From: an uncultured Bacteroidales bacterium
GTDB lineage: Bacteria; Bacteroidota; Bacteroidia; Bacteroidales; JAGOPY01
Assembly: GCA_964447005.1 (NCBI GenBank)
Contig: CAYUQP010000006.1
Span: 13,640-77,639 of the forward strand
Length of the DNA stretch: 64,000 nt
Direction: 5' to 3'
Shown: positions 8,804 to 50,330 of the stretch, piece after piece
How the letters are laid out: the number at the start of each line of letters is the position of its first letter
Position numbering within the stretch: the stretch's first letter is position 1
Made by a program: the position numbers and the translations under genes
The notes under the pieces: model-generated
The model's database searches: none
What the model was told of the DNA's origin: nothing
The model's input: only the letters and a program-made list of their open reading frames with translations

Positions 8804-8848
8804 GCATGAAGAATTATTTTATTGTTTAAAATCTAAAAAATATAGAAG

Positions 8849-9397: not shown

Positions 9398-9444
9398 AGA
9401 TGAAAACTATTAAGTCTTTAAAATTATACTAAATAGATGTGCTC

Positions 9445-26152: not shown

Positions 26153-26157
26153 AATGA

Positions 26158-26652
26158 TTACATTTGATTGGGTACAATATCAATATGGTATCCTAAAACA
26201 AATGCTAACTTTGAAAGAATATCAAGTCCAACGGAATATTTACCTTGTTCAATTCTACTGAGATTTGCAGCGTCTATATTTGCTAACTTTGCTAAATCTT
26301 TTGCTTCTATTCCCTTTTCTTCTCGAATTTGGCGAATTTTTTTTCCTATTCGAGTTCTTTCTCCTTGTCTGTCTCCAGAACTCATTCCCATAAATGACAC
26401 ACCATTTAGCAATAAATCACGCCAAATATTGTGGGTCATTATTTCCTTGTCATCAGAGAAATTTTTGTCAAAAACATACTCTATCAAATGTAGTTGATAA
26501 TGACGAGTTTCTTCATTGGTGTAAATCCCAATTTGAGCCAATATGGAAAAAACTTCTCCATCTTGAGCAATAACCTCGACCATTTTGTCATCAATAATTG
26601 CCGCTTTTGACTTAAATTCAGTCGCCAAAAATTTTTTAAGTTCTTTATTCAT
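26158..26652 (-). CDS. XRE-family helix-turn-helix protein with an unknown ~100-aa N-terminal domain
   Basis: C-terminal IGKKIRQIREEKGIEAKDLAKLANIDAANLSRIEQGKYSVGLDILSKLAFVLG. Lies 5 nt upstream of the HNH gene. Confidence 0.8.
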   Translation of the reverse strand: MNKELKKFLATEFKSKAAIIDDKMVEVIAQDGEVFSILAQIGIYTNEETRHYQLHLIEYVFDKNFSDDKEIMTHNIWRDLLLNGVSFMGMSSGDRQGERTRIGKKIRQIREEKGIEAKDLAKLANIDAANLSRIEQGKYSVGLDILSKLAFVLGYHIDIVPNQM

Positions 26653-26726
26653 ATCATTTTATACCGCATTTAAAGTGTTGTCGCCACTTTTAAAATTATG
26701 AAGCAAAGATAAAGAAAAATAATTTA

Positions 26727-26744
26727 ATTGGCAAATATGCCAAT
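26727..26744. promoter_or_regulatory. Inverted repeat ATTGGCA-aata-TGCCAAT upstream of the XRE gene (candidate operator)
   Basis: Read directly, ~75-90 nt upstream of the XRE start. Confidence 0.3.
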
Positions 26745-27078
26745 TTAGAAATTTTACATATTCAAATTGTATGGTTAAGTGTTTTGTTCAGCGCAGGGAG
26801 GGGCGTTATATGCTGACCGTTAGGGATGAATCTTACAAAGAAAATAGAAATATAGATTTCCTCGCACCCACGCAAATAAAATTACGAAGTAAAAATTATC
26901 AGATGTGTAGTACATAACATTATAATTGCCATTCCGCGGATATAAAATTGCCTTTTTGTAAGGTTTCTCTTTCCTTCTTTATCTATGCTATTGGTAATCA
27001 AAGAGAAAGAAGTTTTTTAGGGCAATTACGCCCTATTTTTAATGAAAAAAAGGTCAACGACCTATAAAACACGAACAT

Positions 27079-27187
27079 ACGAACAAAAAAAGCATAGTTT
27101 TTTTTGTTCGTAAGTATCTGGCCGGCGTTCCACCCTGTCGGGTTTTGGCAATTGCCTGTTGCCAAAATGACCGATATATGAAATGAG
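27079..27187. repeat. Copy A of a ~110-bp structured module (A7/T8 hairpin ... ccctgtcgg ... ttttggcaa/ttgccaaaa hairpin ... accgatatatgaaatgag)
   Basis: Hairpin acgaacaaaaaaa-gcatag-ttttttttgttcgt; the tail motif is shared with copy B. Confidence 0.6.
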
Positions 27188-27287
27188 ATGTCCACAAAAC
27201 GAGACGTTCCCCTGCCAATCTTGTAGTGAGGCAATTGCTCCCCTTTATAATTGATTGCCCATTTTAAACGGGCAATTGCCAAATTGC

Positions 27288-27352
27288 AAGGTTATCAATA
27301 GTCGAGTCAACTGAACCCGGTTCAAAGTTGATGACAAGCTGTTGATAACCTT
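27288..27352. other. 65-nt long imperfect hairpin (outer arms aaggttatcaa/ttgataacctt, inner arms tcaactgaacc/ggttcaaagttga)
   Basis: Inverted repeats read directly. Confidence 0.6.
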
Positions 27353-27513
27353 ATACATTGCTCACCTTCAACTTGATAATGAAAGGTTTATAAACTGCAA
27401 TTTCTTTTGGTTCTTTAATTTATTGCAGATAGTCAAAAAAAAAAAAACCGGGCCACGTATGCAGAGTTTCTGATTGTAATGGTTAAAAAGTCAAAGGCTT
27501 ACAAATCACGCAA

Positions 27514-27623
27514 ATACCAGTTCAAAAAACATCTTTTTTTGAACTGGTATTTCGCTGCGCTGCGCTCCGCCCTATCGGAAATTACAATTGCAGGTGGGGC
27601 AATTTACCGATATATGAAATAAG
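27514..27623. repeat. Copy B of the ~110-bp structured module (ataccagttcaaaaaa-catc-tttttttgaactggtat ... ccctatcgg ... accgatatatgaaataag)
   Basis: Near-perfect 16/17-nt-arm hairpin. The order of shared motifs matches copy A. Confidence 0.6.
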
Positions 27624-27674
27624 GGTGTTGGTTTGCTGGCTGCTCCCCTTGCTCTATTGTTCGACTGTTCAATT

Positions 27675-27723
27675 GTTCCGGGTTCCATTCTCTATGCGCT
27701 TAGCTCTAAGCCCTATGCCTCCC
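27675..27723. repeat. Composite heptamer array (gttccgg gttccat tctctatgc gcttagc tctaagc cctatgc ctccc) just 3' of the AAA_21 ATPase stop
   Basis: Read directly. The motif order matches 29071-29167. Confidence 0.8.
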
Positions 27724-27738
27724 GGTGCAGAGCGTTTT

Positions 27739-28995
27739 CTATTCATTTAACAGGGCTTTAAGTTGTTCAAATGAATCGCTGATATAGGGCACAGCATCAA
27801 AACGACCCTGTAAATAAGCCTTTTCAAGGTCCATGGTGTCTCGAAAGTCGCTGTAATCGTATAACGAATACACATCAGTCGAAGCGTCCTCTTTTTTATT
27901 GGCGAAGAATATCTGGTCTTTCCGGAACTTTTTCAAATCCAGGAACCGGGTGTTATGTGTTGTGCAGATCAACTGGGCCTTATCGCCTGCGCGGAAAATA
28001 TTAAAAATGTATTCGATGATCTTCGGATGTAAGCTATCTTCAATTTCATCGATCAGGAGTACTTTATTATTTTTCACGACGTCAAGAAGAGTCAGCATGA
28101 TGAAAAATAATTTAATCGTCCCCTGGGATTCTTCTGTCAGAAAATCAAATGCAACATCGGGCGAAGCCCTGTGATAGGTTTTAATCTGCAGGTGATCCTG
28201 CACCACATCCTCAACGGTAATTGTCAACTGATTAAGGTCTGCATTGAAGTTTTTGCCCTGTTGCTTTAGCACCTTAATTTTAACATCCACAATATCACTG
28301 TCTGCAATCTTAAGTGCCTCCATCAAATGGGCTTTATTCTCCTTCGTAAGGGTTTCGATTGCTTTTAATCCATAACTGGCATATTGCAAGATGAATGTTT
28401 GAAAGAAATAATTGAAAATCTCTTTTGCAACATCCCGATCCATCTGGCTTGCCCTCGAAATGTACAAAGCTTTGTCAGAAGTATTTTCAGCCACATCAAA
28501 GGGACGTTTGATCAAATCGCCAAAGGAATACTTGTCTTTTTTTGTCTTGCCCAGGCGTTCGTCCCTGGTAAATATTTTTGTAATCCTACCTTTAGGATAA
28601 TAAAAAAGGCTTTCGGTCAGGATCTTCTGCCTGGTCAGAGAAAAGGAGTATTCGTATTCAATCCCCGATGTTACGAAACGAATGAAATAGGTGCTGGGTT
28701 TTTGCTCGTACCCGGAGAACTTAAAAGGCTGGAAATTGAAGATGACATTTTCATTATGAACATGTGAATTAATGACCATGGCATGACAAAACCGGATAGC
28801 GTTGATAATATTGCTTTTACCGGATGCATTGGCGCCATAAATGGCCATAGTCTTGATCACTTCCAGGTCATCAAACTTAAATACGTTATCGGAGAGCGCA
28901 CGGGCATTTGCTGACTTTATACTGGCTGCCCTGAAATCCAGCGTAATTTCGTCTTTAATGGAGAAAAAATTACTTAATCGAATTTCTAATACCAT
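27739..28995 (-). CDS. AAA_21/AAA_15-type ABC-like ATPase (abortive-infection/AriA/RloA-like), without a recognisable partner gene
   Basis: Walker A YGANASGKSNIINAI, Walker B/D-loop LLIDEIEDSLHP, LICTTHN, C-terminal LQGRFDAVPYIS. Confidence 0.8.
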   Translation of the reverse strand: MVLEIRLSNFFSIKDEITLDFRAASIKSANARALSDNVFKFDDLEVIKTMAIYGANASGKSNIINAIRFCHAMVINSHVHNENVIFNFQPFKFSGYEQKPSTYFIRFVTSGIEYEYSFSLTRQKILTESLFYYPKGRITKIFTRDERLGKTKKDKYSFGDLIKRPFDVAENTSDKALYISRASQMDRDVAKEIFNYFFQTFILQYASYGLKAIETLTKENKAHLMEALKIADSDIVDVKIKVLKQQGKNFNADLNQLTITVEDVVQDHLQIKTYHRASPDVAFDFLTEESQGTIKLFFIMLTLLDVVKNNKVLLIDEIEDSLHPKIIEYIFNIFRAGDKAQLICTTHNTRFLDLKKFRKDQIFFANKKEDASTDVYSLYDYSDFRDTMDLEKAYLQGRFDAVPYISDSFEQLKALLNE

Positions 28996-29070
28996 TTTAA
29001 TAAGCTTATTTGTAATTATATTACAAATATAAGCAATAAATGTGAAGATAATAAGGAGATAGTAAAAATT

Positions 29071-29167
29071 GTTCCAAGGTTCCAGGTTCCAGGTTCCAGC
29101 CCATCGCCATACGCTCTATGCCTTAAGCTTCATGCCTCCCTGCCTCCCTGCCTCCATGCCTCCATGC
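29071..29167. repeat. Composite heptamer/octamer array: (gttccag)x4 ... ctctatg ccttaag cttcatg (cctccctg)x2 (cctccatg)x2
   Basis: Read directly. Lies 3' of the AbiEii stop and 5' of the ATPase gene. Confidence 0.85.
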
Positions 29168-29273
29168 TTTCCTACTACCAGAGAAATCCGAACACGATCA
29201 GGGTGCGCTATTTGTTGAATCCTGCTATGGCGATTTCGATGAGTTTTTTGGGTTAGAGCATTGGTTTTTAAAC

Positions 29274-30074
29274 CTAAATAGCTGCAATAAGATTTTCAAT
29301 AACGTACTGACCTGCGGTCTGGGGATCATAGGCTTCACCCGGAAGCAACAGTGCCTTTGTATCACCGATAAACTCGGGATCATTTAGTTTTTCCAACAAA
29401 TTTTTCTCAAATTCAATCCTGAAAGGGCCATGTTTCCCACTGTCCCTTAAAGAAAAATCAATATAGGTTCTATAACATGTCAAAATCTCTTCCAGATTTG
29501 GGCTGAATTCTCTTATAAACTTGAATAAATCATACAGGTCTCTTCCTTTACTTCGTTGGTAAAGTGCCCTCAATTTAGTGCCGAGCAACTCCTCCAACTT
29601 GTATGTTGTGATATCTGTCTTCCCCTTAAATAAAGGTGAATCCATAAGAAAGGGGATTGAATTCCATCCTAAAACAGCAAAGTGTTCTCTCGAATTAACT
29701 TCAACCTTAATCCGCATTTTTTGGACAGGTTCAATTTCCGAATCATAGTGATAAATCAATTTAAAACTACTCTCAGCCCTTTTTACAGTAGCCTTTCCAA
29801 ATCCCTCAAATACAGTTTGTAATCTCCGGATTATTTCTTTGACAGGACCCGATTCTATTTGTACCAGGTCAATATCTTCTGAATATCTTGACGCCTGGCC
29901 CATGAATAGTTTGGATAAAGCTGTACCGCCTCTGAAAGCCAATCGAGAAGCGAGAAATTCATCCTGATAAATTTTTACCAGGGCCCGACTGATGATCAGG
30001 TCCTGCTCCACCTGTTCGGAGAATTGCCAGGGAGCGTGTTGTTGCCATTCGGTGATATAAGCCCTTGGTATCAT
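29274..30074 (-). CDS. AbiEii/AbiGii-family nucleotidyltransferase toxin
   Basis: FRGGTALSKL...SEDIDL motif (NTase), size, and a 4-nt overlap with the upstream AbiEi gene. Confidence 0.85.
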   Translation of the reverse strand: MIPRAYITEWQQHAPWQFSEQVEQDLIISRALVKIYQDEFLASRLAFRGGTALSKLFMGQASRYSEDIDLVQIESGPVKEIIRRLQTVFEGFGKATVKRAESSFKLIYHYDSEIEPVQKMRIKVEVNSREHFAVLGWNSIPFLMDSPLFKGKTDITTYKLEELLGTKLRALYQRSKGRDLYDLFKFIREFSPNLEEILTCYRTYIDFSLRDSGKHGPFRIEFEKNLLEKLNDPEFIGDTKALLLPGEAYDPQTAGQYVIENLIAAI

Positions 30075-30883
30075 AGATCACTCTCCGGAATGGTGTTTTC
30101 AAGAATCTTCCACTTATTGTTAATAGTATATCCTGCCGACGGTTTACCAGTTTTTAAGGGTGTGTTACGGAAGCTGGATTCTTTAAGGGCATCAAATATT
30201 ACTGCTGATAATTTTCCATCCGGATGAATAAGGTCTAACAGATATCCCAACCTTTGCAGGACAGGGATTGGTACATTTTCAGCAATTACCTTCTTTAGCA
30301 CAGAAGGTTTCATGGCTTCATGCAATTCATTCAGGATAGTAAAACAGCGGTTAATCCCACCAATCCTTTTTTCATAAAGAAGCAGATCAATTGCAGTCAG
30401 TTCCGGGCCAGATACTTTTATATAACCAGCTTCAGTCTTTCTGCTTTCCAAAAATTCTTCAGCAATATTTGTCTTTATTATAAAATTGACCGTAAGGTTT
30501 CCTTTCTTAATTGGCCGGAGCGGAGGTTTTTCCGTAATAACAAAAAATTCCTGCGGAGCCTGATGGGAAGCGCCAAAAAATGAAGCCGCGTTCAATAATC
30601 CAACATAATATTTCTTTTCAAGATAACGCATCATCTGGTCCATAAACATAATAGGAGGTAATGTTTTTTGAACAGAATATTCAGGAGGTACAATTAAGTA
30701 AAATCCCTTTCTTAAAGGAGTTATTTTTCCTTTGTTGGTCATCCTGTTTAAAGCCTTCTTAATGGCTTCTTCAGTAGTCTTGAATTCAGTCCTGATTTCT
30801 TCAAGAGAAAAAGTATACCTTCCTTTTATCCTGAGCTTATCAGTAAAATCCTCTAAATAGTTATATGACATAGTAGTAATCAT
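30071..30883 (-). CDS. AbiEi-family type IV toxin-antitoxin antitoxin (winged-helix N-terminus)
   Basis: Size, position and ATGA overlap with AbiEii. N-terminal wHTH-like FSLEEIRTEF...AIKKALNRMTNKGKITPLRKGFY. Confidence 0.8.
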   Translation of the reverse strand: MITTMSYNYLEDFTDKLRIKGRYTFSLEEIRTEFKTTEEAIKKALNRMTNKGKITPLRKGFYLIVPPEYSVQKTLPPIMFMDQMMRYLEKKYYVGLLNAASFFGASHQAPQEFFVITEKPPLRPIKKGNLTVNFIIKTNIAEEFLESRKTEAGYIKVSGPELTAIDLLLYEKRIGGINRCFTILNELHEAMKPSVLKKVIAENVPIPVLQRLGYLLDLIHPDGKLSAVIFDALKESSFRNTPLKTGKPSAGYTINNKWKILENTIPESDL

Positions 30884-30902
30884 AGATCATGATGTATTTT
30901 CA

Positions 30903-30939
30903 TTTGCGAAAGGTACTACAATCTGTCCACATTCGCAAA
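30903..30939. promoter_or_regulatory. Inverted repeat tttgcgaa-N21-ttcgcaaa upstream of abiEi (candidate autoregulatory operator)
   Basis: Read directly, 20-56 nt upstream of the AbiEi start. AbiEi antitoxins are known to bind inverted repeats in their own promoters. Confidence 0.4.
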
Positions 30940-31018
30940 CAATATGTCAGAAAAAATCAAATGGACTGGCGATCGTCTCATCCTCCCCGTCTCTCCCGAT
31001 CCGCTTTGCTTCCCCTTA

Positions 31019-32398
31019 CTACCAGTCTGTCAATTTCTTTGCAATCTCTTTCTTCTGTTCGTCTTCAAAGCTGTCCAGGTAGTTTTCAGTGGTCTTGATA
31101 TCGGTATGACCTAATGCATCGCTGATAAAGGTTACATTGACGCCTGACCGTTTCAGGACGGTTGCAAAGGAATGCCTGGCGGTGTATGTGGTAACCCTGT
31201 GTTCGATGCCGACTTTAGCTGCAACTTTGTTAATGTATACATTGATCATCTGGACCGCCTGTGCTACTATGGCATGTTTCTTTTCAGGAGACTGCTCATT
31301 GGTCAGGAAAGGAAAGATGAAGCTATCGGGATGAACTGGTTTATTCCCCCAGCGATCAATGATTTGCTGCACTTTATCGGTCAGGATGATATCAATAGGC
31401 CTTGAATTGCGGTTTGTATTGATCGTTTTTGCCCTTCTGAAATAAATATGATCACCTTGTATATTAGAATACTTTAACCAGCAAACGTCCTTTATATTCA
31501 TGCCATTGCAGAGGTAGGAGAAAATCCAGAGATCCCGGTAAAAATACTCCGGATCGTCACTCTCCGGCTGGTATTTAAAGATCTTCTCAATCTCAGCAAT
31601 TTTCAGAGCTTTCTTAATGTTCTGTGGTTGTGGGATCTCATATCTGCCCTTACCGAAGGGATAGTCTTCCTGTTTGACAATTCCCTCTTTAATGGCCTCG
31701 TTAAAAAGATAACGCAGACTACGGAGATAGATTGAGACCGTGGTTTGTGAGGTGCCTTTTAAGATCATATGAGATTCATATTTTTTTAAGAATTGCGGGG
31801 TAATGCTTTTAAAGGACAATCTTTTTTCTCCAGCAAATGCTTTTATTGAATTCCTGGAATAGGTGTAATTATTTGCACTGCCGAACTGTTGATTTCCTTT
31901 TAATACTTTAATGTAATCATCATAGGCACCATATACATCATCCTTGATCCTATCCGGATCGAGGAAGCGTTTTTCAAATTTTTCAAAAGAAAAGGATTCC
32001 ATGTCATAGATTATTTCCAATGCCCTCCGGAGATTTTCGTGGAAAATGATCTTCTTTTCTTTAAGGTCCCCTCTGGTCTTCGGTCCAATTGTCTTTAACC
32101 AATCCTCAGGCAGCATCTGAACTTTTGTAGAATAGAATTTCGAGAATCGTTTGTGTATGATCTGTAATCTGACTGTCGAGGTCCCATCTTTCCTGAGTCT
32201 GACAGTATCTAAGATTACAGAAACTGATACCCTCTTTTGCTTTAGAAGGGCAAAATTCTGTTCCGGATGCGTTATTGTCGGTAATTTTTCCTTTTTCTTC
32301 CGCGTCTTTTTTTCCTCCGGATTGACATTTTTGACATTTTTTTCAAATTGGGCATCTTTCTTTGCCTCAATTTTATTAGCTTTACCAGATGGTGCCAT
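31019..32398 (-). CDS. Tyrosine site-specific integrase (Bacteroidetes type with an N-terminal arm-binding/SAM-like domain)
   Basis: ARHSFATVLKRSGVNVTFISDALGHTDIKTTENYL (R...H-x-x-R...Y catalytic region); Lys-rich N-terminus. Confidence 0.92.
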   Translation of the reverse strand: MAPSGKANKIEAKKDAQFEKNVKNVNPEEKKTRKKKEKLPTITHPEQNFALLKQKRVSVSVILDTVRLRKDGTSTVRLQIIHKRFSKFYSTKVQMLPEDWLKTIGPKTRGDLKEKKIIFHENLRRALEIIYDMESFSFEKFEKRFLDPDRIKDDVYGAYDDYIKVLKGNQQFGSANNYTYSRNSIKAFAGEKRLSFKSITPQFLKKYESHMILKGTSQTTVSIYLRSLRYLFNEAIKEGIVKQEDYPFGKGRYEIPQPQNIKKALKIAEIEKIFKYQPESDDPEYFYRDLWIFSYLCNGMNIKDVCWLKYSNIQGDHIYFRRAKTINTNRNSRPIDIILTDKVQQIIDRWGNKPVHPDSFIFPFLTNEQSPEKKHAIVAQAVQMINVYINKVAAKVGIEHRVTTYTARHSFATVLKRSGVNVTFISDALGHTDIKTTENYLDSFEDEQKKEIAKKLTDW

Positions 32399-33939: not shown

Positions 33940-34467
33940 TTATATGAAACCCTCCCTGCAAGCCTGGCATAAATGCGCTTCCTTCAGGTCGATGTCTTCC
34001 ACGTAAGTGCTTGATCGCATAACACAGTCCTGGGTTTGGCAATGGATCAGGCCAAATGTATGGCCCAGTTCGTGGATCACTTCTTTTTGAAAACGAAGAA
34101 TCAGAAGGTCCTTGTCCGGAGGCATGCCATACCGCTCATTATGAAGCCTGTAAAGCGAGGCAATACCGGTGTTGCCGCCCAGAACTGCCTGGCCATAAAT
34201 AAAGGTCAGGATGGGTATGTACAGGTCGACGTTGAATAAACCAATCGTTTTGTAAGAATCCGGCAAGATTCTGGAATCCATTTCATTTAACAGCTTGTTC
34301 GCGTTATACTGCCTCCGGCCGGCATCGTAATATTCACTCAGGTCAATATGACCTTCCCTCACCCTGACCGAAAAACGAAATTCCTGGCGCACCGCTTCGG
34401 CAACTTTTTCAAGAATATCCTTCTCGAAATAACCAAAAGATATCAGTGTAATGTGCCGTTGATCCAT
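33940..34467 (-). CDS. amzA: Archaemetzincin-family zinc metalloprotease
   Basis: HELGHTFGLIHCQTQDCVMRSS...CQAC matches the HExxHxxGx3Cx4CxM...CxxC signature. Confidence 0.85.
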   Translation of the reverse strand: MDQRHITLISFGYFEKDILEKVAEAVRQEFRFSVRVREGHIDLSEYYDAGRRQYNANKLLNEMDSRILPDSYKTIGLFNVDLYIPILTFIYGQAVLGGNTGIASLYRLHNERYGMPPDKDLLILRFQKEVIHELGHTFGLIHCQTQDCVMRSSTYVEDIDLKEAHLCQACREGFI

Positions 34468-34532: not shown

Positions 34533-35873
34533 TTATTCAGGGGACTTCAGGTTGAATTTTTTGATCTTGTTGTACAGGGTTACCCGGTCAACTTTCAGCG
34601 CTTTGGCCGTCCGGGATATATTCCAGTCGTATTTGTTCAGGATCTGAAGGATGAATGCTTTCTCGAATTCATCCAGGCTTTCGACGGATGAACTGACCTC
34701 ATGAGCGGCAATCGGCAGGTCTTTAAGCTGGATCCGTTTTCCGTTGCCAATGACCAGCGCCCGCTCGATCATATTCTCCAGCTCCCTTATATTGCCGGGA
34801 AACGGGTATTCTTCCAGCCTCTTCAAAGCCTGTGTATCAATGGCTACCGACGGCTTGTTCATCGAAGTGCAATACTTGCGGATGAAATAATCGACCAGCA
34901 GCGGAGTATCCTCCGTCCTTTCCCTCAACGGCGGAATGTGAATGTTCACCACGTTCAGCCGGTAATAAAGATCTTCCCGGAACTCGCCTTTCTCAACCAT
35001 GGTTTTCAGGTCCCTGTTGGTTGCGCAGATGAGCCTGAAATCCGAAGTGATCTCCTTGTTCCCTCCCACCCGGGTAAATGTCTTGGTTTCAAGCACCCGC
35101 AACAGCTCCACCTGCATTTTCGGCGAGATGGTACCAATTTCGTCGAGAAAGATCGTACCGCTGTCGGCCATTTCAAAACGTCCCTTCCGGTTGTAAAGAG
35201 CCCCGGTGAAGGCACCTTTTTCATGGCCAAACAACTCGCTTTCGAGCAGGCTTTCTGTCAGGGCGCCGCAGTGCACACTGACCAGCGGGTAGAACTTCCG
35301 GGGCGAGTTAAAATGGATCGCCCTGGCTATCAGCTCCTTGCCTGTACCACTCTCTCCCGTGATGATCACTGACGAACTGGACTGCGCCACGCTTTCCACC
35401 TCCTCCAGCACTTTTTTCATGGCCTCGCTGTTCCCGATGATGTCGCCCACATGCTCCAGGGAAACGACTTTTCTTTTGAGATTCTCATTCTCCTCTGCCA
35501 GGACGATCTGTTTGGAAGCATTCCGGATCAGGTGCGAAAGGTCGTCCGGATCGAAAGGCTTGGTGACATAATCATACGCGCCGTCTTTCAGAGCCTTCAC
35601 CGCGGTGTCAACCGTCGCAAAAGCCGTCATGACAATGACGATGGCATCTTTTCTCAGGGTTTTGATCCGCCGCAGCATTTCCAGCCCGTCCATCCCCGGC
35701 ATCTTCAGATCCGCGAGAATAATATCATAATCCTCCGATTCAAGGATCTGCAATGCCCGTTTCGCATGTTCGGCACATTTAACATGATATCCGTCATCGG
35801 TGAACCAGTCACGCAACGAATCTCTGACGGATTGCTCATCATCGACAATTAAAATGGAGATTTTCCTGGCCAT
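34533..35873 (-). CDS. Sigma-54-dependent response regulator (NtrC/AtoC/ZraR family: REC + AAA+ + Fis HTH)
   Basis: ILIVDDE...DLKMPGMDG; GESGTGKE Walker A; GAFTGA loop; C-terminal NISRTAKALKVDRVTLYNKIKKF. Confidence 0.95.
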   Translation of the reverse strand: MARKISILIVDDEQSVRDSLRDWFTDDGYHVKCAEHAKRALQILESEDYDIILADLKMPGMDGLEMLRRIKTLRKDAIVIVMTAFATVDTAVKALKDGAYDYVTKPFDPDDLSHLIRNASKQIVLAEENENLKRKVVSLEHVGDIIGNSEAMKKVLEEVESVAQSSSSVIITGESGTGKELIARAIHFNSPRKFYPLVSVHCGALTESLLESELFGHEKGAFTGALYNRKGRFEMADSGTIFLDEIGTISPKMQVELLRVLETKTFTRVGGNKEITSDFRLICATNRDLKTMVEKGEFREDLYYRLNVVNIHIPPLRERTEDTPLLVDYFIRKYCTSMNKPSVAIDTQALKRLEEYPFPGNIRELENMIERALVIGNGKRIQLKDLPIAAHEVSSSVESLDEFEKAFILQILNKYDWNISRTAKALKVDRVTLYNKIKKFNLKSPE

Positions 35874-35884
35874 GTTTTATCTGC

Positions 35885-37555
35885 TTATGTGTTGATCAAA
35901 GGCAGAACGATTGAAATAGTCGTCCCTTGCCCCAGTTCTGATTTAACCTGTATTCTTCCTTTATGATTCTGGACAATGCCATGAACAATGGAAAGGCCCA
36001 GGCCAATGCCGCTCACGTCCCGCTTGGTGGTAAAGAAGGGTTCAAAAATGTGTGGGATATCCTCTTCCGATATCCCGGTCCCGTTGTCAATAATGTCGAT
36101 TCTAATCGTGTCCTCATCAGGATTGGAAGTCCGCATCCGGATCTCCCCGTTTTCCCTGATAGCTTCCGTTGCATTGACAATCATTGCCATACATGCCTGT
36201 TTGATCTGGTTAGGGCTGCAATAGGTCAAATCAGCTTTTGCCGTGAAATCGGACAGGAAACTGATGTTCGCCATTTTAACCGCGTGGGTCATCAGGTCGT
36301 AAGTATCCTGCATCACTTCATGAATATGAAACGGTTCAAAATCCCCCTGCTCCTTTTTCGAAAAATCAAGCAGCCCCTTGACAATATCACCGCATCGTTT
36401 GGTTTCACTCTCAATCATTTTCAAATGCTGCAGCATGGATTCCTTCTTTGCGTCACTTAATTCAGGATTGCTTAATTGCTTATGGATCAGTTTTGTATAA
36501 ACAAGAATACCGGAGAGGGGATTATTGATCTCATGGGCTACTGAAGAAGACAGCTTTCCGAGCGAAGCCAGTCGTTCCACATGGATGATCTCATTCTGGA
36601 CGGCGCCCAATTCCTCCGACTTTTTCTGGACCTTATATTCCAGTTGCTGCGACCAGTTTTTCAGCTCCTCATTGGCGGCCTGCAATTTATCCAGCATGTC
36701 GTTGAATGCCTGGGAAACCAGCCTCATATCTTCCGGCTGTTTGTAATCCGTGGCAACGCGCGAATTCACATCGCCATCGATAACGGCTTTACTCACTTCC
36801 ACCAGCGAATTCAGAGGTTGTTTCACGGCTTTTCCTGTAAATAAGATCAAAATGCTAATGATCAGTACCGTAGCAATTATTCCGAAAAGAAAGAAATTAA
36901 GTGAAGTCTTTTCCACTGCCTTATCAATGTTTTCAAGAGGTATAGTGATCAGCAGGGAACCCAGCACCCTTTCATCCTGGCTATGGGCATGGCAGGCGCT
37001 TTCATAACAGGAACGTTCATTGAAAATCGGCGACCTGATGATAAGATGCCGCTGGTCCCTGACATTTTCACTCATCTGGCACTCACTGCCCACGTCAACA
37101 ATGCGATAGGATTTCTCTGACAATGGGAACATGGCATGAAAATCGTCGTGGCATGCCCTGCAGTTGGGGTTGAAATGCCCTTCGGCATCATGAGAAAAAG
37201 AAGAGTAGACCAGGCTGTCGTTCTGATCGTAAAGATTTACATCTTCAATATCCGGAAGCACGTTGATGATATCCAGCGTATTCCGGAGCGTTGTTTTGTC
37301 ATTTTCCATCATCGACTGGTACAGTGCCCCTTTGATCAGCGATCCGACATTATTTCCGTTTTGTCGGATGATGTTGTTCATGTTCTGCTCATGAACTGAT
37401 TTGAAGATGATCCCGTAGGCAGCATAAAGGATCAGCGAAAGGGTGGCTATGATCAGCACGACCTGACCATAGATCGATGAGTGAAATTTTACTCTTTTCT
37501 CACTGCTGTTATTGCCAGGGTCTTTTTTCCTGAATATCTTAAAAATAGGCCACAT
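35885..37555 (-). CDS. Sensor histidine kinase (2 TM, periplasmic domain with CxxCH and Cx4CH haem-c motifs, HAMP, HisKA, HATPase_c)
   Basis: TM1 aa ~31-52, TM2 aa ~219-240. CRACH at aa 132-136 (nt 37148-37162) and CYESACH at aa 183-189 (nt 36989-37009). H-box SSVAHEINNPL; N/G boxes. Confidence 0.9.
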   Translation of the reverse strand: MWPIFKIFRKKDPGNNSSEKRVKFHSSIYGQVVLIIATLSLILYAAYGIIFKSVHEQNMNNIIRQNGNNVGSLIKGALYQSMMENDKTTLRNTLDIINVLPDIEDVNLYDQNDSLVYSSFSHDAEGHFNPNCRACHDDFHAMFPLSEKSYRIVDVGSECQMSENVRDQRHLIIRSPIFNERSCYESACHAHSQDERVLGSLLITIPLENIDKAVEKTSLNFFLFGIIATVLIISILILFTGKAVKQPLNSLVEVSKAVIDGDVNSRVATDYKQPEDMRLVSQAFNDMLDKLQAANEELKNWSQQLEYKVQKKSEELGAVQNEIIHVERLASLGKLSSSVAHEINNPLSGILVYTKLIHKQLSNPELSDAKKESMLQHLKMIESETKRCGDIVKGLLDFSKKEQGDFEPFHIHEVMQDTYDLMTHAVKMANISFLSDFTAKADLTYCSPNQIKQACMAMIVNATEAIRENGEIRMRTSNPDEDTIRIDIIDNGTGISEEDIPHIFEPFFTTKRDVSGIGLGLSIVHGIVQNHKGRIQVKSELGQGTTISIVLPLINT

Positions 37556-37657
37556 AGCTCAATTATTATAATTTACGCAAGATACGAAAAATTAATCATT
37601 AAAAAACCGGTGGAAGAACCCACCGGCCTTGAATTCACAATATTTAAAGAACCGCTG

Positions 37658-38374
37658 TTACCTTGGTTCCAGGAATTCTTTCTGGAAATCCAGCCACATT
37701 TCCTCAGGCATTTCTGCCAGCAGGCTCTCGCTCAGCTCACCACCGTCCTGCAACACCACGTGTGACTGTTCCGGGGCATATTTTGCCAGTTTTACCGCCA
37801 GGAAATCCCTCAGGCGCTCCATTTCTTTCGAAAGCCAGCTCCTGGCCTCATCGGCCATAAAATAATCCTGCGTCTCCGATTTCCAGTCGGAGGGTTTGAT
37901 GGCATATAACCAGCCTCTTTCATAAGGGTCCTGCTGCACTATACCGGGATCCTCGGTCAGCAGGTCATTAGCCTTCAATATTTTGCCTGAGATCGGCGAA
38001 AATATACCAAGGCGTTTACCCTGGTGGTCAACTTCCGCGACCAGTTCCCCTTTTCTAATTTCATCTTCAGGCTGTCTTAGGTAGTTCACCCTGACTTCCC
38101 CGGTGACATGTACCAGGAGATTATCGACACCCATTGTCGCAGCCCCGGAGCGTTCCATGAACGTCCAGGTATGCTGGCCGGTATAGTATAATCCCTGCGG
38201 GCTGCTTTTTATTTTTGCAGACAGGAAAACAAGCGCTTTGCGCAATTCCGTAGCAATTTCCTTCTTCTTGTTCAGGATGATCCAGAAAGGGATCAGGAGC
38301 AACAGAAAGATGATGATCACAATATACTCGATACCCTTGGTGTCGAATATGTTCACGTATGAGAAACCGTCCAT
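37658..38374 (-). CDS. Membrane-anchored GcvH-fold (glycine-cleavage H-like) protein with a conserved C-terminal extension
   Basis: N-terminal TM (YIVIIIFLLLLIPFWIIL) followed by NKKKE, then HTWTFMERSGAATMGVDNLLVHVTG...FSPISGKI...DPYERGWLYAIKP. Confidence 0.75.
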   Translation of the reverse strand: MDGFSYVNIFDTKGIEYIVIIIFLLLLIPFWIILNKKKEIATELRKALVFLSAKIKSSPQGLYYTGQHTWTFMERSGAATMGVDNLLVHVTGEVRVNYLRQPEDEIRKGELVAEVDHQGKRLGIFSPISGKILKANDLLTEDPGIVQQDPYERGWLYAIKPSDWKSETQDYFMADEARSWLSKEMERLRDFLAVKLAKYAPEQSHVVLQDGGELSESLLAEMPEEMWLDFQKEFLEPR

Positions 38375-38455
38375 AACTATAAGAGTTTTAAGTTTTTATT
38401 TTTTAGTTTTGAGTTTGAGTTATTTAGTTGTTGAGTTAATTTGAATTTTATATTT

Positions 38456-39739
38456 TTAATTTGAATTTTGTTTGGGATTTGGAATTTGGAATTTGGAATT
38501 TTCTTTCGCCCAGGAAGGTGCATCTCTGAGTACAGGCATCCGGTTGATCACCCATCTGAAGATCCATATCTCCACAAAAATTACGGTCAGGGTGACGACC
38601 AGTTCCATCCATGTGGGTATATATCTCACCGGCATGTCCCATTTGAAACCGATAACAGTTACGTTCAGCCTGTTAAGGATAATTCCGAGCATGGTCAGAA
38701 TGGAGGCGACCCTGATCATTAATATATTATTGTTACGATAACTCTGGTAAAAGATCACCATCGGCACCAGAACGAAGCCGATCATTTCAAGCAGGTACCA
38801 GTATCCCATTCCCGTATTGAGGTATTGCCAGTTCTTCTGGTGGATAAATACCAGGATATTAAGGAAAAAGTAAGCAAACATGGCACCCGCGCAAATTCTG
38901 GACAATCCGATGACTATGTTTTTCTGCGCGTGATGGTTTTTTTCACTGATCTGGTTAAAAAACACCTTATGGCTGATTGATCCCTCGAAGATCACCATGG
39001 AAAGTCCGGCGAAGATGCTGGAAACAAAGAACATGACCGGGATGAATTCAGAATACCAAAGTGGGTGGATCTTTTCTTTCGCCATCAGGTAAAGTGCGCC
39101 CAGTCCTGACTGATGCAACATCGAAAGCGTGATCCCGAAGATGACTGCGCCAATGGTCATTCCTGCCAGAATTTTCCTGGCACGGCGCGCTCCGAGCCAT
39201 TCAGCGATGGCAGGCGAAAATTCGATCAACTGGGCGATCATATAAAGCAGGAAATGCCATGCCACCAGGAAGAGGACCGAGTTGGTCCCGAAATTGTTCC
39301 CAATGATCGGGTTCACCACGTTCCATGGCCTTCCCAGGTCTAAAAGCAAAGCCCCGGCATAAAATACATAAGCCAGGAACCCGTTAAGCACAGTGACCCT
39401 AACTATGGATTTGTATTTCTTCATGTTCAGGATGTACACCATGAACGTGATGACGTAGGCTCCCCCTGCAAATGCCACGCCGGTTACCACGTCAAATCCG
39501 ATCCATAATCCCCAGGGGACATCCTGTGTCAGGTTGGTAACTGAGCCAAGCCCTTTCCAAAAGCGGATCACAATGATGATCAGCCCGGCAATGATCACCG
39601 GAACGGAAATGATGTTAAACGGAGTGAATATCTTTCCTTTTGGTTTGAGTTCACTCAATAAAAATTTCCAGGTAGTCTGATTCTCCTGTTTAATTGCTAT
39701 TGGAGTATTATTTTTCATTTTCTTCTTCGTTTGAGTCAT
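38456..39739 (-). CDS. NrfD/HybB/PsrC-family polytopic membrane (quinone-interacting) subunit
   Basis: ~10 hydrophobic segments; the size and position after the HybA-like FeS protein fit this family. The start overlaps the upstream gene (alternative ATG at 39718). The 3' end runs into the ggaattt repeat. Confidence 0.8.
   Translation of the reverse strand: MTQTKKKMKNNTPIAIKQENQTTWKFLLSELKPKGKIFTPFNIISVPVIIAGLIIIVIRFWKGLGSVTNLTQDVPWGLWIGFDVVTGVAFAGGAYVITFMVYILNMKKYKSIVRVTVLNGFLAYVFYAGALLLDLGRPWNVVNPIIGNNFGTNSVLFLVAWHFLLYMIAQLIEFSPAIAEWLGARRARKILAGMTIGAVIFGITLSMLHQSGLGALYLMAKEKIHPLWYSEFIPVMFFVSSIFAGLSMVIFEGSISHKVFFNQISEKNHHAQKNIVIGLSRICAGAMFAYFFLNILVFIHQKNWQYLNTGMGYWYLLEMIGFVLVPMVIFYQSYRNNNILMIRVASILTMLGIILNRLNVTVIGFKWDMPVRYIPTWMELVVTLTVIFVEIWIFRWVINRMPVLRDAPSWAKENSKFQIPNPKQNSN
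38474..38500. repeat. Heptamer array gggattt (ggaattt)x3 inside the 3' end of the NrfD-like ORF, within an AT-rich periodic tract 38401-38500
   Basis: Read directly. Confidence 0.85.
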
Positions 39740-40571
39740 CTTTTTTAGTTCCCTGGTAAACCCCTGCCAGCAATGCCGGGACTAACACAAATATAGCCGG
39801 CACGCTGTAGAGGAATGTTTTGGTCATCGCCGGGTATGATTCCCTGCTGATGTTCGTTCTCATTCCCAATTCTTCAAAAGGAACCGGGGAAAGATGCAGC
39901 CAGGAGGTTCCTCCGGCCTCATGTTCACCAAAAATATGATCGTTGTATACGTCCGGCAGTTCCGCGATCCTGCGGCGCGCTTCCCGGATCAGTTCCCGCC
40001 GGGTGCCGTACATCAATGCTTCGGCAGGACAACCTGCCACACAAGCGGGGATTTCGCCCTGGGATATTTTATTTTCATAGCACATTGTGCATTTCTCAAT
40101 CTTGGGATTCGGGCTGAAATACTCGAATTTCGGAACATCAAACGGGCAGGAGACCATACAATAACGGCATCCCATGCATTTGTCCGCCCGCCAGATCACC
40201 GCCCCGTCTTTGGTTTTATACATCGCCTGGGTCAGGCAGGCCGCCACACAGGCCGGCTCATTGCAATGCATGCACTGGACCTTGGAATAAAAAACCCCTT
40301 TTGACGTGTTGTACTCATTGACCACCGTTCGGTGTTTGTCATCTGTTTTGCGATCCGGCAGGATGTCATCAGGAGGTTCCGGAAGGCCGTTTGCCGCTGC
40401 GCACTCGTATTCGCAGTTACGGCAGCCGACACAACGGTAGGAGTCGTACAGGACCCCGTAGAACTCCTTCTCCGTTTTGGTTTTCGGACTGGCGTTCAGT
40501 TGCGACCCTGTTGCCAGGGCTGCTCCTGTTACGCCCAGTACTTTAAAGAATCCTCTTCTGTTGATACTCAT
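39708..40571 (-). CDS. Tat-exported four-cluster 4Fe-4S ferredoxin subunit with a C-terminal TM anchor (HybA/NrfC/DsrO-like)
   Basis: Twin-arginine signal MSINRRGFFKVLG; CVGCRNCEYEC, CMHCNEPACVAAC, CMGCRYCMVSCP, CTMC...CVAGCP; C-terminal hydrophobic FLYSVPAIFVLVPALLAGVY. Confidence 0.88.
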   Translation of the reverse strand: MSINRRGFFKVLGVTGAALATGSQLNASPKTKTEKEFYGVLYDSYRCVGCRNCEYECAAANGLPEPPDDILPDRKTDDKHRTVVNEYNTSKGVFYSKVQCMHCNEPACVAACLTQAMYKTKDGAVIWRADKCMGCRYCMVSCPFDVPKFEYFSPNPKIEKCTMCYENKISQGEIPACVAGCPAEALMYGTRRELIREARRRIAELPDVYNDHIFGEHEAGGTSWLHLSPVPFEELGMRTNISRESYPAMTKTFLYSVPAIFVLVPALLAGVYQGTKKDDSNEEENEK

Positions 40572-40617
40572 CGCTTATTCGTTTAAAGTTATTGATCACT
40601 GGTTTTTTTCAGCATGT

Positions 40618-42297
40618 CTATTTATTGGCATCAATGAACTTGCTCTGAAAGTCTTCCCATACTTCCGGGCCGAAATCCTCGAGCAGGTTGTTTTTCATTT
40701 CGCCTCCGTCCTGGAGCACAACCTGGGCATAGTCCAGTTTATGCGACTGCAGTGATGAGGCCAGGAAATCCTTAAGGCGGGTAAATTCACCGTTGAGCCA
40801 CCTGGTATATTTGCCTGCCATGCTCAGCAGCGGGATCTCCTGCAGCCAGGATGCCGGTTCCAGGCGGTAGATCCAACCTTCGCCGTAAGGCGACTCATTC
40901 AGCAATGTCGTATTCCCACCCGTCAGAGACTTGTTCGTTTCAAGGATTGTACCCGACACCGGTGCATACAGCACGAGCTTCTTCCCTTTCTGGATCAGGG
41001 TAAGGAAGGCCTCGCCCTTTTTCACCGTGTCACCCGGTTTTCTCATTTCTACCCGGGTGATCGGACCGGTGATATGCTGCAGGAAATCATCTATCCCGAC
41101 CTTCACATAACCGTCTTTTTCCATGAATGCCCAGGTATGGCTCATATCGTAGAATAATCCCGCGGGAGCAGCAACTGTGCGTTCTCCAAATGTTTCGTCG
41201 GCCAATTCGGGCCCTTCGGCCATCGTGATGCCTTTCCTTCTGCCAAATCCAAAGAGGGCGGTAGCGAGGACGACGAGCATCAGTACCACAGCGCCGATGA
41301 ACAGGATAAGCCTGGGTATCGAAACCGCCTGGCTGGCAGCCGGGGCTGTTTCTTCAATGCCGGAAAACTGTTCAAGCTTGCTCTGAACCTCACTGTATAC
41401 CAAGGTATTGAATCCGTTATTTACCAGTGAGCCCTGGCCTGATGTCAGAATCCAGGTGATGAACCCTATTTGTGAGCGGTCAACAGGCCTTGTTGGTGAA
41501 ACAGCATATATGTCACTGGTCAGTTCCCCCGGGTATTTGCCAATCCAGACGCCCCTTTCAAATGACTGGAGATCGCTGTAGATATTTTCCATATGATCCA
41601 GTGTGCCGTTGTTATTACGGTCGATCGGCAGGATCATGGCCGGGGAAACGAATGTTTTTGCTCCCGGTTCCATAATACCGCTCAAGCTACAGATGGCTAT
41701 AGCATAGCGATCATTTTCAATTAAACCCATAAGGTGATCATAACCTTCAACCAGGGTTATTGACGCGGGCAGGTCGCCGGTCTGCAGGAATTCTTTTACT
41801 ATTCCGATAACCGCCGGATCATTGATCAGGTAAACCGGCACGGGCTTGATGTTGCTGGTGCCCAGGATCGCGCCCCAGGATGTTCCGGGCTTTCCTGCCA
41901 GGATCATTTTCAGGTTATCCTGGGTGATGCCGCGGGTTTTCATTTCACCGGCAAACGGGTTAGCGGCGTTGGTCACCGGCACCACCACTTCCCGTCCGAC
42001 AGCCATTTTCCAGGTCGGCACACCTTTTATGTCCTTCTCTGGCATAAAAGCAAGGTAATTTTCAGACCCACTCAAAGCCGAAGGCTCTTCGATAAGGTTC
42101 ACCCCAATTTTCGCATCCGGATACTGGTTCATATACCCATTGGCCCATTCATTGGTCAGTTCAAGAAGGTCGGCGGTGCATCCGATCCCGATCGCCTGTG
42201 GGGCATTTTCATTCTTAATTTCTCTATTATTCCCGCTCAGGGCTATGTTGCAGGAGAGAAGCGCAACACTGATCATCAAAAAAATCCTGGTTTTCAT
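40618..42297 (-). CDS. Fusion protein: periplasmic PstS/PBP_like_2-type binding domain, one TM helix, and a cytoplasmic GcvH-fold domain with the same C-terminal extension as 37658-38374
   Basis: Signal peptide; ...VVVPVTNAANPF... PBP-like region; TM IPRLILFIGAVVLMLVVLATALFGF then RRKG; HTWAFMEKDGYVKVGIDDFLQHITG...YAPVSGTI...SPYGEGWIYRLEP. Confidence 0.7.
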   Translation of the reverse strand: MKTRIFLMISVALLSCNIALSGNNREIKNENAPQAIGIGCTADLLELTNEWANGYMNQYPDAKIGVNLIEEPSALSGSENYLAFMPEKDIKGVPTWKMAVGREVVVPVTNAANPFAGEMKTRGITQDNLKMILAGKPGTSWGAILGTSNIKPVPVYLINDPAVIGIVKEFLQTGDLPASITLVEGYDHLMGLIENDRYAIAICSLSGIMEPGAKTFVSPAMILPIDRNNNGTLDHMENIYSDLQSFERGVWIGKYPGELTSDIYAVSPTRPVDRSQIGFITWILTSGQGSLVNNGFNTLVYSEVQSKLEQFSGIEETAPAASQAVSIPRLILFIGAVVLMLVVLATALFGFGRRKGITMAEGPELADETFGERTVAAPAGLFYDMSHTWAFMEKDGYVKVGIDDFLQHITGPITRVEMRKPGDTVKKGEAFLTLIQKGKKLVLYAPVSGTILETNKSLTGGNTTLLNESPYGEGWIYRLEPASWLQEIPLLSMAGKYTRWLNGEFTRLKDFLASSLQSHKLDYAQVVLQDGGEMKNNLLEDFGPEVWEDFQSKFIDANK

Positions 42298-42330: not shown

Positions 42331-42346
42331 ACAATTTGAGTGCCAG
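42331..42346 (-). promoter_or_regulatory. Sigma-54 (-24/-12) promoter CTGGCAC-tcaaa-TTGT, 34 nt upstream of the 40618-42297 start codon
   Basis: The minus-strand sequence ctggcactcaaattgt matches TGGCAC-N5-TTGC with exact spacing and one mismatch (final C to T). Confidence 0.65.
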
Positions 42347-42397: not shown

Positions 42398-42439
42398 TGT
42401 GTATTTATTAAACACATGCTTTGTTGATTTATTCAACAC
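42398..42439. promoter_or_regulatory. Two tandem 18-mers TGTgtATTTATTaAACAC / TGTtgATTTATTcAACAC (candidate enhancer sites for the sigma-54 activator)
   Basis: Read directly, 24 bp start-to-start and ~55-105 bp upstream of the -24 element. Each has dyad arms (TGTGT/ACACA, GTTGA/TCAAC). Confidence 0.4.
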
Positions 42440-42657
42440 TTATTATACAAACAACAAGCAAAGCGCTGACTCGCAGCATCTTCATCCAACTGATGAATTA
42501 TTATACAGGTGTTGAATATTTAAGCATTATTGATTAAACAGCTTATTTCTCTGATGGTCTTCATGCTCCTTTTTATTCTTCCGGTTCACAATTTTTAAAA
42601 TATCAGAGAATTTTCATGCAATATTCTTATCTTTATATCCACTCAAAAACTAACATT

Positions 42658-46979: not shown

Positions 46980-47193
46980 TGTTGAGGGATTGATTTTTTT
47001 TTGCAAAGATGAAAATAATTTCCTCCGTGATGGTTTCTTTTTTTAACCGCAGAGAAAACAGAGTATACGCAGAGGATTCTCGGTGGTTAACTCAGAATGG
47101 CCTGAAATTTGATATATTTACCAGGCAACTATTTTATTTTCATGTGTTTTACACATATTATATGAAAATTAAAAAATGAAAATTGAAGAAATC

Positions 47194-48414: not shown

Positions 48415-48421
48415 AAATAAT

Positions 48422-48449
48422 GTTGAATTTTGAATGTTGAAGGTTGAAT
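48422..48449. repeat. Heptamer array gttgaat tttgaat gttgaag gttgaat, 8 nt after the serpin-1 stop
   Basis: Read directly. Confidence 0.85.
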
Positions 48450-48468
48450 TATAAAAAGGTAAAAAGTT

Positions 48469-49692: not shown

Positions 49693-49802
49693 GCCCCCTA
49701 ATTTATATTGAATATAAAGAATATTTTATATTATCTTTGGTACGGAATTTGAATTTTAATTTAACAAACTAAACGCTAACAAAAATAAGAAAGGAAAAGT
49801 CT

Positions 49803-50330
49803 ATGAAAATCACAAAAATTTTGACGGTTGCCACACTGGTCGTCTTCATGGCCGGAATGCTCTCCGCCCAGGATTTCAACTATATCGGGGCCGGAAAATG
49901 CAAGATGTGCCACAACTCTGAAAAAGCCGGATACGCTTACAATATCTGGAAAGAGTCGCTGCACGCAAAAGCGCTGGTATCACTCGGGAACGAAAAATCG
50001 CTTGCCTATGCAAAAGCCAACGGCATTGCCGATCCGACGAAGGACCCAAAATGCCTGAACTGCCATTCCACGTATCACATGGTGCCCAAGGACAATATCG
50101 AGACCCTTCTGCCGACGGAAGGCGTGTCGTGCGAGAGCTGCCATGGCCCGGGAAGCGCTTACAAGACCAACACGATCATGAAAAGTCGCGAACTCTCAAT
50201 GAAGAATGGTCTGATCCTTCCGACCAAGGAAGTTTGTGAAACCTGCCACAACAAGCAGAACCCGTTCTACAAACCCTTCAATTACGAGGAAGCGGTGAAG
50301 AAGATCGCGCATCCGACACCGAAAGTGTAA
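49803..50330 (+). CDS. Periplasmic tetrahaem cytochrome c
   Basis: Signal peptide; four CxxCH motifs (CKMCH, CLNCH, CESCH, CETCH). Confidence 0.85.
   Translation: MKITKILTVATLVVFMAGMLSAQDFNYIGAGKCKMCHNSEKAGYAYNIWKESLHAKALVSLGNEKSLAYAKANGIADPTKDPKCLNCHSTYHMVPKDNIETLLPTEGVSCESCHGPGSAYKTNTIMKSRELSMKNGLILPTKEVCETCHNKQNPFYKPFNYEEAVKKIAHPTPKV

Follow-up and report, generated by a model that had tools for sequence, protein, structure and literature searches.

Sensor domains of PAS-like or Cache fold that carry covalently bound haem c are an established class, described by Londer et al. 2006 and Pokkuluri et al. 2008 in the accounts given by PMC8396549 and PMC3831638, and by Deshpande et al. 2026 (PMC12889525). 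The periplasmic sensor domains of the Geobacter chemoreceptors GSU0935 (3B42) and GSU0582 (3B47) belong to this class (PMC8396549). In the present work a sensor histidine kinase encoded in a 64,000-nt stretch of DNA (the window; contig CAYUQP010000006.1) from an uncultured Bacteroidales bacterium was analysed and compared with these systems. The outward-facing domain of this kinase is predicted, very probably, to carry two covalently bound haems, and the kinase is followed by a regulator of the NtrC type and preceded by an operon with GcvH-like and HmcBC-like genes.

In GSU0935 and GSU0582 a PAS-like/single-Cache domain is placed between two transmembrane (TM) helices, the haem motif stands in an insertion that precedes the last beta-strand, and the N-terminal helix bears the distal Met; the sensor domain of the window kinase is alike in all these features. 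The differences are that GSU0935 and GSU0582 are methyl-accepting chemotaxis proteins (MCPs) with CxxCH whereas the window protein is a histidine kinase with Cx4CH, that the latter has an extra His two residues past the proximal His and an insertion of ~16-18 residues with a second CxxCH, and that the identity is only 17-20%, the window domain also scoring under the cut-off of PF21563.

Proteins with two motifs have been noted before. GSU0591 and GSU0599 of G. sulfurreducens and Adeh_2011 and Adeh_3383 of Anaeromyxobacter dehalogenans were described as GSU0935-like with an additional heme-binding motif, and for such homologues, some of which are two-component proteins, a CX2-4CH signature was given (PMC3831638, PMC8396549). 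They come from another phylum, their architecture is presumed to be the same (the comparison being by description only), and no link to a GcvH/HmcBC operon is reported for them. A literature search found no characterisation of GSU0591, GSU0599, Adeh_2011 or Adeh_3383. Since the two-motif homologues were noted from sequence in 2006 and 2013 and no characterisation was found, the window protein is regarded as a new member of a known but uncharacterised subclass.

The sCache_heme domains (DUF3365, Tll0287-like; PF11845) are likewise extracytoplasmic Cache domains with covalent haem c on an inserted segment, and many of them are joined to a HAMP, kinase, MCP or GGDEF output, as the present domain is to HAMP and a kinase. 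Their hallmark is a canonical CXXCH, present in 99% of members, with one haem in Cys/His or labile ligation (PMC12889525). Unlike these domains, the present family has Cx4CH at the corresponding site in 187 of 202 members and CxxCH in one, and it has in addition the Met and a second motif.

Sensor domain and predicted haem sites

The open reading frame (ORF), the motifs CRACH and CYESACH and the two TM segments were recovered by our own translation and by hydropathy, the motifs exactly where a preliminary description of this DNA had placed them. CYESACH comprises aa 183-189 (nt 36989-37009), and the Kyte-Doolittle windows gave two hydrophobic segments at aa ~31-52 and ~219-241. The N-terminal 30 residues contain seven Lys/Arg against one in the 16 residues past TM1. 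Because of this Lys/Arg-rich N-terminus and of the HAMP domain directly after TM2, the loop of aa 53-218 with its motifs is assigned to the periplasm, as had been supposed. The HAMP match (E 3.4e-4, 21.3 bits) is itself under the Pfam cut-off of 25 bits, which homologues exceed, and no Pfam family was matched by the sensor region of aa 53-218. The kinase core is intact, with the H-box at His341 and the N, G1 and G2 boxes. Its best NCBIfam matches were AtoS and ZraS, all with scores far under the equivalog cut-offs, and the close relatives are labelled only 'NtrC family sensor kinase' in the source databases.

In two long-read assemblies of metagenome-assembled genomes (MAGs) the orthologous kinase is broken into several called genes (L001, 9276-10947; L002, 10001-11654), probably through assembly frameshifts. 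Genes split in this way account for the odd short lengths of many database homologues.

The conservation of both motifs was analysed in close and in distant relatives. A word-indexed search with the N-terminal 250 aa gave 26 metagenomic relatives of 47-64% identity, in which CxxCH was invariant and S-C-x4-C-H-x-H was kept wherever the region was covered. Eighty species-level orthologues (52-62% identity) were then collected from MAGs of Bacteroidales, Lentimicrobiaceae and Prolixibacteraceae; the genome scan with the close-family alignment A1 returned only Bacteroidia. The sole invariant columns of a 100-sequence alignment were Met82, Tyr109, Cys132, Cys135, His136, Cys183, Cys188, His189 and His191, and every one of them was kept in the orthologues (80/80 each), among which His127, His140 and His170 of the kinase were variable. 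When the sensor domain alone was compared exhaustively by HMMER with 1.84 billion cluster representatives (E <= 1e-3), at least 338 proteins at 22-35% identity were revealed, comprising kinases, PAS-kinases and GGDEF proteins, and nearly all of these showed CxxCH, ~40 residues and then Cx4CH.

Similar results were obtained for a wide family of 202 full-coverage relatives with ~20-30% identity. Site 2 (C..CH) was found in 202/202, Met82 in 201/202, His191 in 199/202 and site 1 in 192/202. The spacer between the two Cys of site 2 was of four residues in 187 members, three in 10, five in three and two in one, and one member is without the first Cys. From the Cys and His frequencies in the long ORFs of the window, 4e-4 CxxCH motifs are expected in a domain of 166 residues, and ~2e-7 for both motifs jointly. 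As the motifs are conserved in the 80 orthologues and in the 202 distant relatives, they are not a product of chance; the conservation which the preliminary description had put forward as a check was thus invariant in the former and nearly so in the latter.

The homology to proven haem c sensors was revealed by a profile built from 40 diverse sensor domains of the family, which matched 3B42 with E 6e-8 and 3B47 with E 1.7e-5. Cys183, Cys188 and His189 align with Cys140, Cys143 and His144 of GSU0935, the proven attachment site (C106, C109 and H110 of the chain, as the 3B42 chain numbering is offset by 34 from that published in PMC8396549). Met82 aligns with chain residue M26, that is Met60, the distal ligand that binds on reduction (PMC8396549). 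A predicted haem c site at Cx4CH on a Cache fold, with His189 and Met82 as its ligands, is indicated by this homology. These profile matches and the motif conservation support the initial view of the protein as a haem c sensor kinase, with covalent haem as a prediction. One correction concerns the roles of the two sites: it is Cx4CH that aligns with the proven site of GSU0935 and that is ancestral for the sensor haem, rather than the canonical CxxCH.

The AlphaFold2 model of the sensor domain (predicted local distance difference test, pLDDT, 81.6; predicted template modelling score, pTM, 0.75) is in accordance with the profile result. It has the single-Cache topology a1-a2-b1-b2-(ins)-b3-b4-(ins)-b5-aC, where ins stands for an insertion, with short helices at both motifs. 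Met82 is at the end of a long N-terminal helix continuing from TM1. The top Foldseek matches included the WalK sCache domain (TM-score up to 0.71), 3B42 and 3B47, and the highest sequence identities among them were those of GSU0935 (20%) and GSU0582 (17%). The likeness to cytochrome c3-type proteins, to which the preliminary description had pointed, holds for the motif, Cx4CH being a described haem c attachment motif (PMC11492766), but not for the fold, which is single-Cache (PAS-like). A cytochrome c3 fold was rejected: no match to Cytochrom_CIII or c3_2 was obtained, and there are only two motifs against the four bis-His haems of c3.

The part of the profile with the first CxxCH (positions 86-103) has a counterpart of only two residues in 3B42, and CRACH is therefore located in a family-specific insertion of ~16-18 residues. 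Because CRACH sits in this extra insertion a second haem is likely, and from its conservation alone CRACH most probably binds an accessory second haem (haem 1). His191 was tried as the distal ligand of haem 1 and found to be unsupported by covariation, since it is present in 9 of the 10 members that do not have site 1. Cys159, the fifth Cys of the periplasmic domain, is not conserved across the wider family; it is possibly an extra axial ligand or a redox-active thiol.

The Pfam models cover this domain poorly. PF21563 (Mcp40H-20_sensor), taken by its name to represent the haem sensors of the Geobacter MCPs, was the commonest Pfam match and was found in 30 of 40 family members (best E 1e-7). 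PF11845 was touched by only 9 of the 40 (best E 0.014). Because the PF21563 score of the window domain is under the cut-off and PF11845 is hardly matched at all, current annotation would miss the sensor domain.

Predicted coupling of the kinase to a sigma-54 operon

The position of the kinase between an NrfCD-like/GcvH-fold operon and a sigma-54 activator, as initially described, was borne out by the Pfam assignments of its neighbours (Table 1). The kinase, the NtrC-type regulator and the GcvH-like/HmcBC-like operon are syntenic in ~60 genomes, and the seven-gene order with the M54 peptidase last recurs in relatives. Where the loci could be evaluated, the kinase has the regulator on its downstream side in 63/64, and on its upstream side a GcvH-like gene in 60/60 and HmcBC in 56/60; the order and strand of the block are conserved across the MAGs of Bacteroidales, Lentimicrobiaceae and Prolixibacteraceae.

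Of 64 orthologous loci, 63 have an element equivalent to the -24/-12 promoter of Table 1, for which the background is 0.0033 per 160 nt. The relaxed form of the pattern was used because the upstream regions show that its last base is free, and it is in this form that 63/64 loci match. The strict pattern TGGCAC-N5-TTGC was rejected; it gave 56 matches in the window where 56 are expected and was present in 6/64 loci only. Among the upstream regions, CAACAC occurs in 95% and TGTATA in 87%, compared to a background of 12.5%.

Systems in which an AtoS or ZraS kinase acts with an NtrC-type activator are similar in the kinase core, in the REC-AAA+(GAFTGA)-HTH_8 partner and in the -24/-12 promoter, and differ in that the sensor domain of the window kinase is unrelated to those of AtoS and ZraS. 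The features of an NtrB/AtoS-type and NtrC-type two-component system are all present, namely His341, Asp55, GAFTGA and the -24/-12 promoter, with phosphotransfer as the predicted step. The predicted chain from sensor to kinase, regulator, sigma-54 promoter and operon is well supported by comparative evidence. The link of the kinase to the neighbouring operon, proposed in the preliminary description, likewise gains support from the conserved synteny and from the promoter in 63/64 loci.

Table 1. Coordinates of the kinase locus and its features in the window
Feature	Coordinates	Strand	Details
Sensor histidine kinase	35885..37555	-	556 aa; TM1, periplasmic predicted haem-Cache domain, TM2, HAMP, HisKA, HATPase_c; ATG ORF
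TM1	37400..37465	-	aa ~31-52; hydropathy and positive-inside N-terminus
Periplasmic single-Cache sensor domain	36902..37399	-	aa 53-218; AlphaFold2 model, Foldseek, family profile against PDB
Met82 codon	37310..37312	-	predicted distal axial ligand of the sensor haem (haem 2); aligned with GSU0935 Met60
Site 1, CRACH (C132, C135, H136)	37148..37162	-	aa 132-136; predicted attachment site of an accessory second haem; kept in 80/80 and 192/202
Cys159 codon	37079..37081	-	fifth periplasmic Cys; specific to the Bacteroidia clade; kept in 79/80 orthologues
Site 2, CYESACHAH (C183, C188, H189, H191)	36983..37009	-	Cx4CH, predicted sensor-haem site, with conserved His two residues on
TM2	36833..36901	-	aa ~219-241; hydropathy
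HAMP	36677..36838	-	aa 240-293; Pfam
Kinase core, AtoS/ZraS-like	35897..36562	-	HisKA aa 332-404 and HATPase_c aa 448-553; Pfam, NCBIfam
NtrC-type response regulator, cognate	34533..35873	-	REC (Asp55), sigma-54 AAA+ with GAFTGA loop (at 220), HTH_8
M54 (archaemetzincin-like) peptidase	33940..34467	-	last gene of the block in 64/64 evaluable loci
Hairpin followed by U-tract	37601..37630	-	between small GcvH gene and kinase; possible terminator or attenuator
TM-GcvH protein	37658-38374	-	presumed target operon; small GcvH gene
HmcC/HybB-like NrfD protein	38456-39739	-	presumed target operon
HmcB/HybA-like Tat Fe-S protein	39708-40571	-	presumed target operon
PBP_like_2-TM-GcvH fusion	40618-42297	-	first gene of the presumed target operon (37658..42297)
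Sigma-54 type -24/-12 promoter, TGGCAC-N5-TTG	42332..42345	-	35-48 nt upstream of the first operon ATG (42297)
Two CAACAC/GTGTTG and TGTATA elements, inverted orientation	42434..42514	-	candidate enhancer (upstream activating sequence) for the regulator

The presumed target operon is without a catalytic subunit. Both of its GcvH-like domains are predicted to be cytoplasmic and share a common C-terminal extension of ~60 aa; both have Gly at the lipoyl-Lys column and Lys at +1, an ambiguous pattern in the comparison with the E. coli sequence. A literature search for a GcvH/NrfD operon found no papers. The composition of the locus varies in a few relatives. In L036, L038 and L081 (~8000-10000 in each) the large GcvH fusion is directly before the kinase, the regulator and the M54 peptidase, and HmcB, HmcC and the small GcvH gene are absent, so that it is the GcvH fusion and not HmcBC that forms the constant partner. 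In L017 (5345-9832) a [FeFe]-hydrogenase with a twin-arginine translocation (Tat) signal stands in place of HmcBC and the small GcvH genes, and a gene for a tetrahaem c554-like cytochrome is immediately upstream of the GcvH fusion. This variant hints at a connection of the system with periplasmic H2 and cytochrome redox chemistry; with one of 80 loci showing the hydrogenase linkage, it is to be read as a lead and not as a pattern.

The hairpin between the operon and the kinase folds with -20.9 kcal/mol (z -2.87). It was found by direct folding and was not listed by the consensus terminator scan, and an inverted-repeat scan gave none with arms of >=10 nt. In view of the hairpin and its U-tract, the kinase-regulator pair may be transcribed apart from the structural genes.

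Proposed mechanism and competing explanations

Taken together, a two-haem periplasmic Cache kinase that drives the sigma-54 operon, with periplasmic redox state as the favoured signal, is considered the best and a reasonably probable explanation. By homology the sensor haem would be attached to Cys183 and Cys188 with His189 as the proximal ligand, and Met82 would be its switchable distal ligand. Cys132, Cys135 and His136 in the family-specific insertion would hold the accessory haem, to judge from their conservation only. A change in redox state or ligation of the sensor haem may move the helix of Met82 and with it TM1, and HAMP would relay this movement to the AtoS/ZraS-like kinase core and His341. 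Phosphoryl transfer to Asp55 of the neighbouring NtrC-type regulator would follow, and this regulator, with its GAFTGA loop, is expected to activate the conserved sigma-54 promoter of the GcvH-like/HmcBC-like operon. The signal would be the periplasmic redox state, the accessory haem exchanging electrons with a cytochrome or Fe-S partner in the periplasm.

The preference for periplasmic redox state over a diffusible gas is the least certain step of this scheme. It is favoured because the conserved extra haem suggests electron exchange and the operon consists of redox components, and also because the variant locus pairs an [FeFe]-hydrogenase with a tetrahaem cytochrome. A further and more tentative idea, which is held to be rather doubtful, is that of a 'wired' sensor, in which the di-haem Cache domain, instead of binding a small molecule, exchanges electrons directly with a periplasmic redox partner, the HmcB-like Fe-S protein or the linked tetrahaem cytochrome.

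Several points weigh against the two-haem redox scheme. The predicted haem attachment rests on the sequence and a structure model, and AlphaFold models no cofactors. On its own the window domain reached 15.6 bits on PF21563 where the cut-off is 27, so that the homology rests on the family profile, and the window protein gave no match to PF11845 at either threshold used (E <= 0.01 and E <= 1). Among the residues considered, His191 included, no distal ligand was identified for the putative haem 1. Bacteroidota normally use System II for cytochrome maturation, and no cytochrome c maturation genes were found within the 64,000-nt window. The window does encode a tetrahaem c554-like protein with a signal peptide (49803-50330, plus strand), from which it follows that the organism makes c-type cytochromes. 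The hairpin with its U-tract suggests that the kinase may not be co-transcribed with the operon, and the binding of the regulator to the promoter region is inferred. Finally, the signalling-fused haem-Cache domains that have been studied act as NO, not redox, sensors (PMC12889525).

For this last reason a gas ligand is the main rival to redox state as the signal. The architecture and the haems would be the same, and a diffusible ligand (NO, CO or possibly sulfide) would displace Met82, in the way proposed for sCache_heme domains fused to signalling outputs, the second haem serving only to tune potential or stability. In P. azotoformans the sCache_heme-HAMP receptor shows sensor-like kinetics of NO binding (PMC12889525), in GSU0582 and GSU0935 the displacement of Met60 by NO and CO is reversible (PMC8396549), and the retention of the Met in 201/202 family members would suit such a switch. 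On the other hand, conserved additional haems are more usual in electron transfer than in gas binding, the operon holds quinone- and Fe-S-type redox components and no NO-detoxifying genes, and one variant locus couples the system to a periplasmic hydrogenase and a cytochrome. A gas signal is accordingly viewed as possible but on the unlikely side. The domain might instead hold haem at Cx4CH only, with the CRACH insertion binding a metal ion, forming a disulfide or redox-active dithiol, or being structural. The solved homologues carry one haem, 10 of the 202 relatives have no site 1 and retain site 2 and the Met, and a dedicated distal ligand for haem 1 is missing, all of which speak for a protein with a single haem. 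Such a protein is nevertheless improbable, as Cys132, Cys135 and His136 are kept in 80/80 orthologues and the full C-x-x-C-H in 192/202 relatives, and CRACH is on a short helix in the model, as is usual for CxxCH. Profiles of NapB, cytochrome c7 and MtrC type were also weakly matched by several family members, a sub-significant match to NrfA was obtained with the part of the family profile around site 1, and the extra motif has been read as haem-binding in the literature (PMC3831638).

That the protein is no haemoprotein at all, its motifs forming a site for zinc, copper or an Fe-S cluster or else structural disulfides, is very hard to sustain. Five periplasmic Cys and several His could form a metal site, yet site 2 and the Met match a crystallographically proven haem c site residue for residue, a spacing of 2 to 5 with a fixed CH is a haem-attachment pattern (PMC11492766) and would be odd for a metal cluster, and Cys159 is clade-specific. 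At the level of the locus, the kinase and regulator might be mere neighbours of the GcvH/HmcBC operon and control another regulon. The terminator-like hairpin between operon and kinase would fit this arrangement, and so would the fact that binding of the regulator to the promoter is a prediction only. Against it stand the conservation of block order and strand across the three groups of MAGs, the sigma-54 promoter at the operon in 63/64 loci where this regulator is the only sigma-54 activator of the block, and the conserved upstream elements; an unconnected neighbourhood is thus judged distinctly improbable.

Other features of the window and significance of the clade

The tetrahaem Cytochrome_C554-type gene mentioned above (49803-50330, plus strand) also adjoins the cluster in L017, L077, L049 and L001/L003. 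It is preceded in the window by a sigma-54-like site, TGGTAC-N5-TTG at 49738-49751, which is not conserved in other loci and is an unproven candidate promoter. Between this gene and the cluster are two tandem serpin genes of 412 and 407 aa (47176-49692, plus strand), and a serpin flanks the cluster in L001 too. On the other side, an HNH endonuclease, an AAA ATPase, a nucleotidyltransferase/antitoxin-like pair and a tyrosine integrase (25169-32398, minus strand), adjoining OsmC, probably form an integrated mobile element; in L001, which is the closest relative, the space from the M54 peptidase to OsmC is occupied by metabolic genes. Further away, one ORF of 1462 aa (2293-6681, plus strand) combines a full AcrB-type resistance-nodulation-division (RND) transporter (ACR_tran, 5-1033) with an outer-membrane efflux protein domain (OEP, 1274-1459), an apparent fusion of pump and outer-membrane factor or else the result of a missed stop or frameshift. 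The metal-efflux island around it includes a P-type ATPase (9439-11532), a second RND pump (14035-17916) and a multicopper oxidase (22233-23384).

It was not until 2026 that Cache sensors with covalent haem were recognised to be a large family, and the members studied are all of the single-haem kind. The present analysis adds the extent of the two-motif clade, its signature of Met, CxxCH and Cx4CH-x-H together with the Bacteroidia-specific Cys159, and its predicted tight coupling to a sigma-54-driven operon. The clade is distinct and unannotated by Pfam; it numbers at least 338 clusters (50% identity), species-representative genomes contain at least 553 stretches that match it, and its sharp signature renders it experimentally tractable. 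The kinase offers a regulatory handle on a conserved GcvH-like and HmcBC-like operon in uncultured anaerobic Bacteroidales, in which the GcvH/HmcBC-like module is widespread. If the sensor is indeed wired, the kinase would read electron flux or the state of the quinone/cytochrome pool and would thereby control an uncharacterised membrane module, composed of an HmcBC-like unit and membrane-anchored GcvH-like proteins facing the cytoplasm. A second haem that serves as an electron-input wire would be a new way for Cache domains to sense, and this new mode of Cache signalling would be attached to a new kind of redox module.

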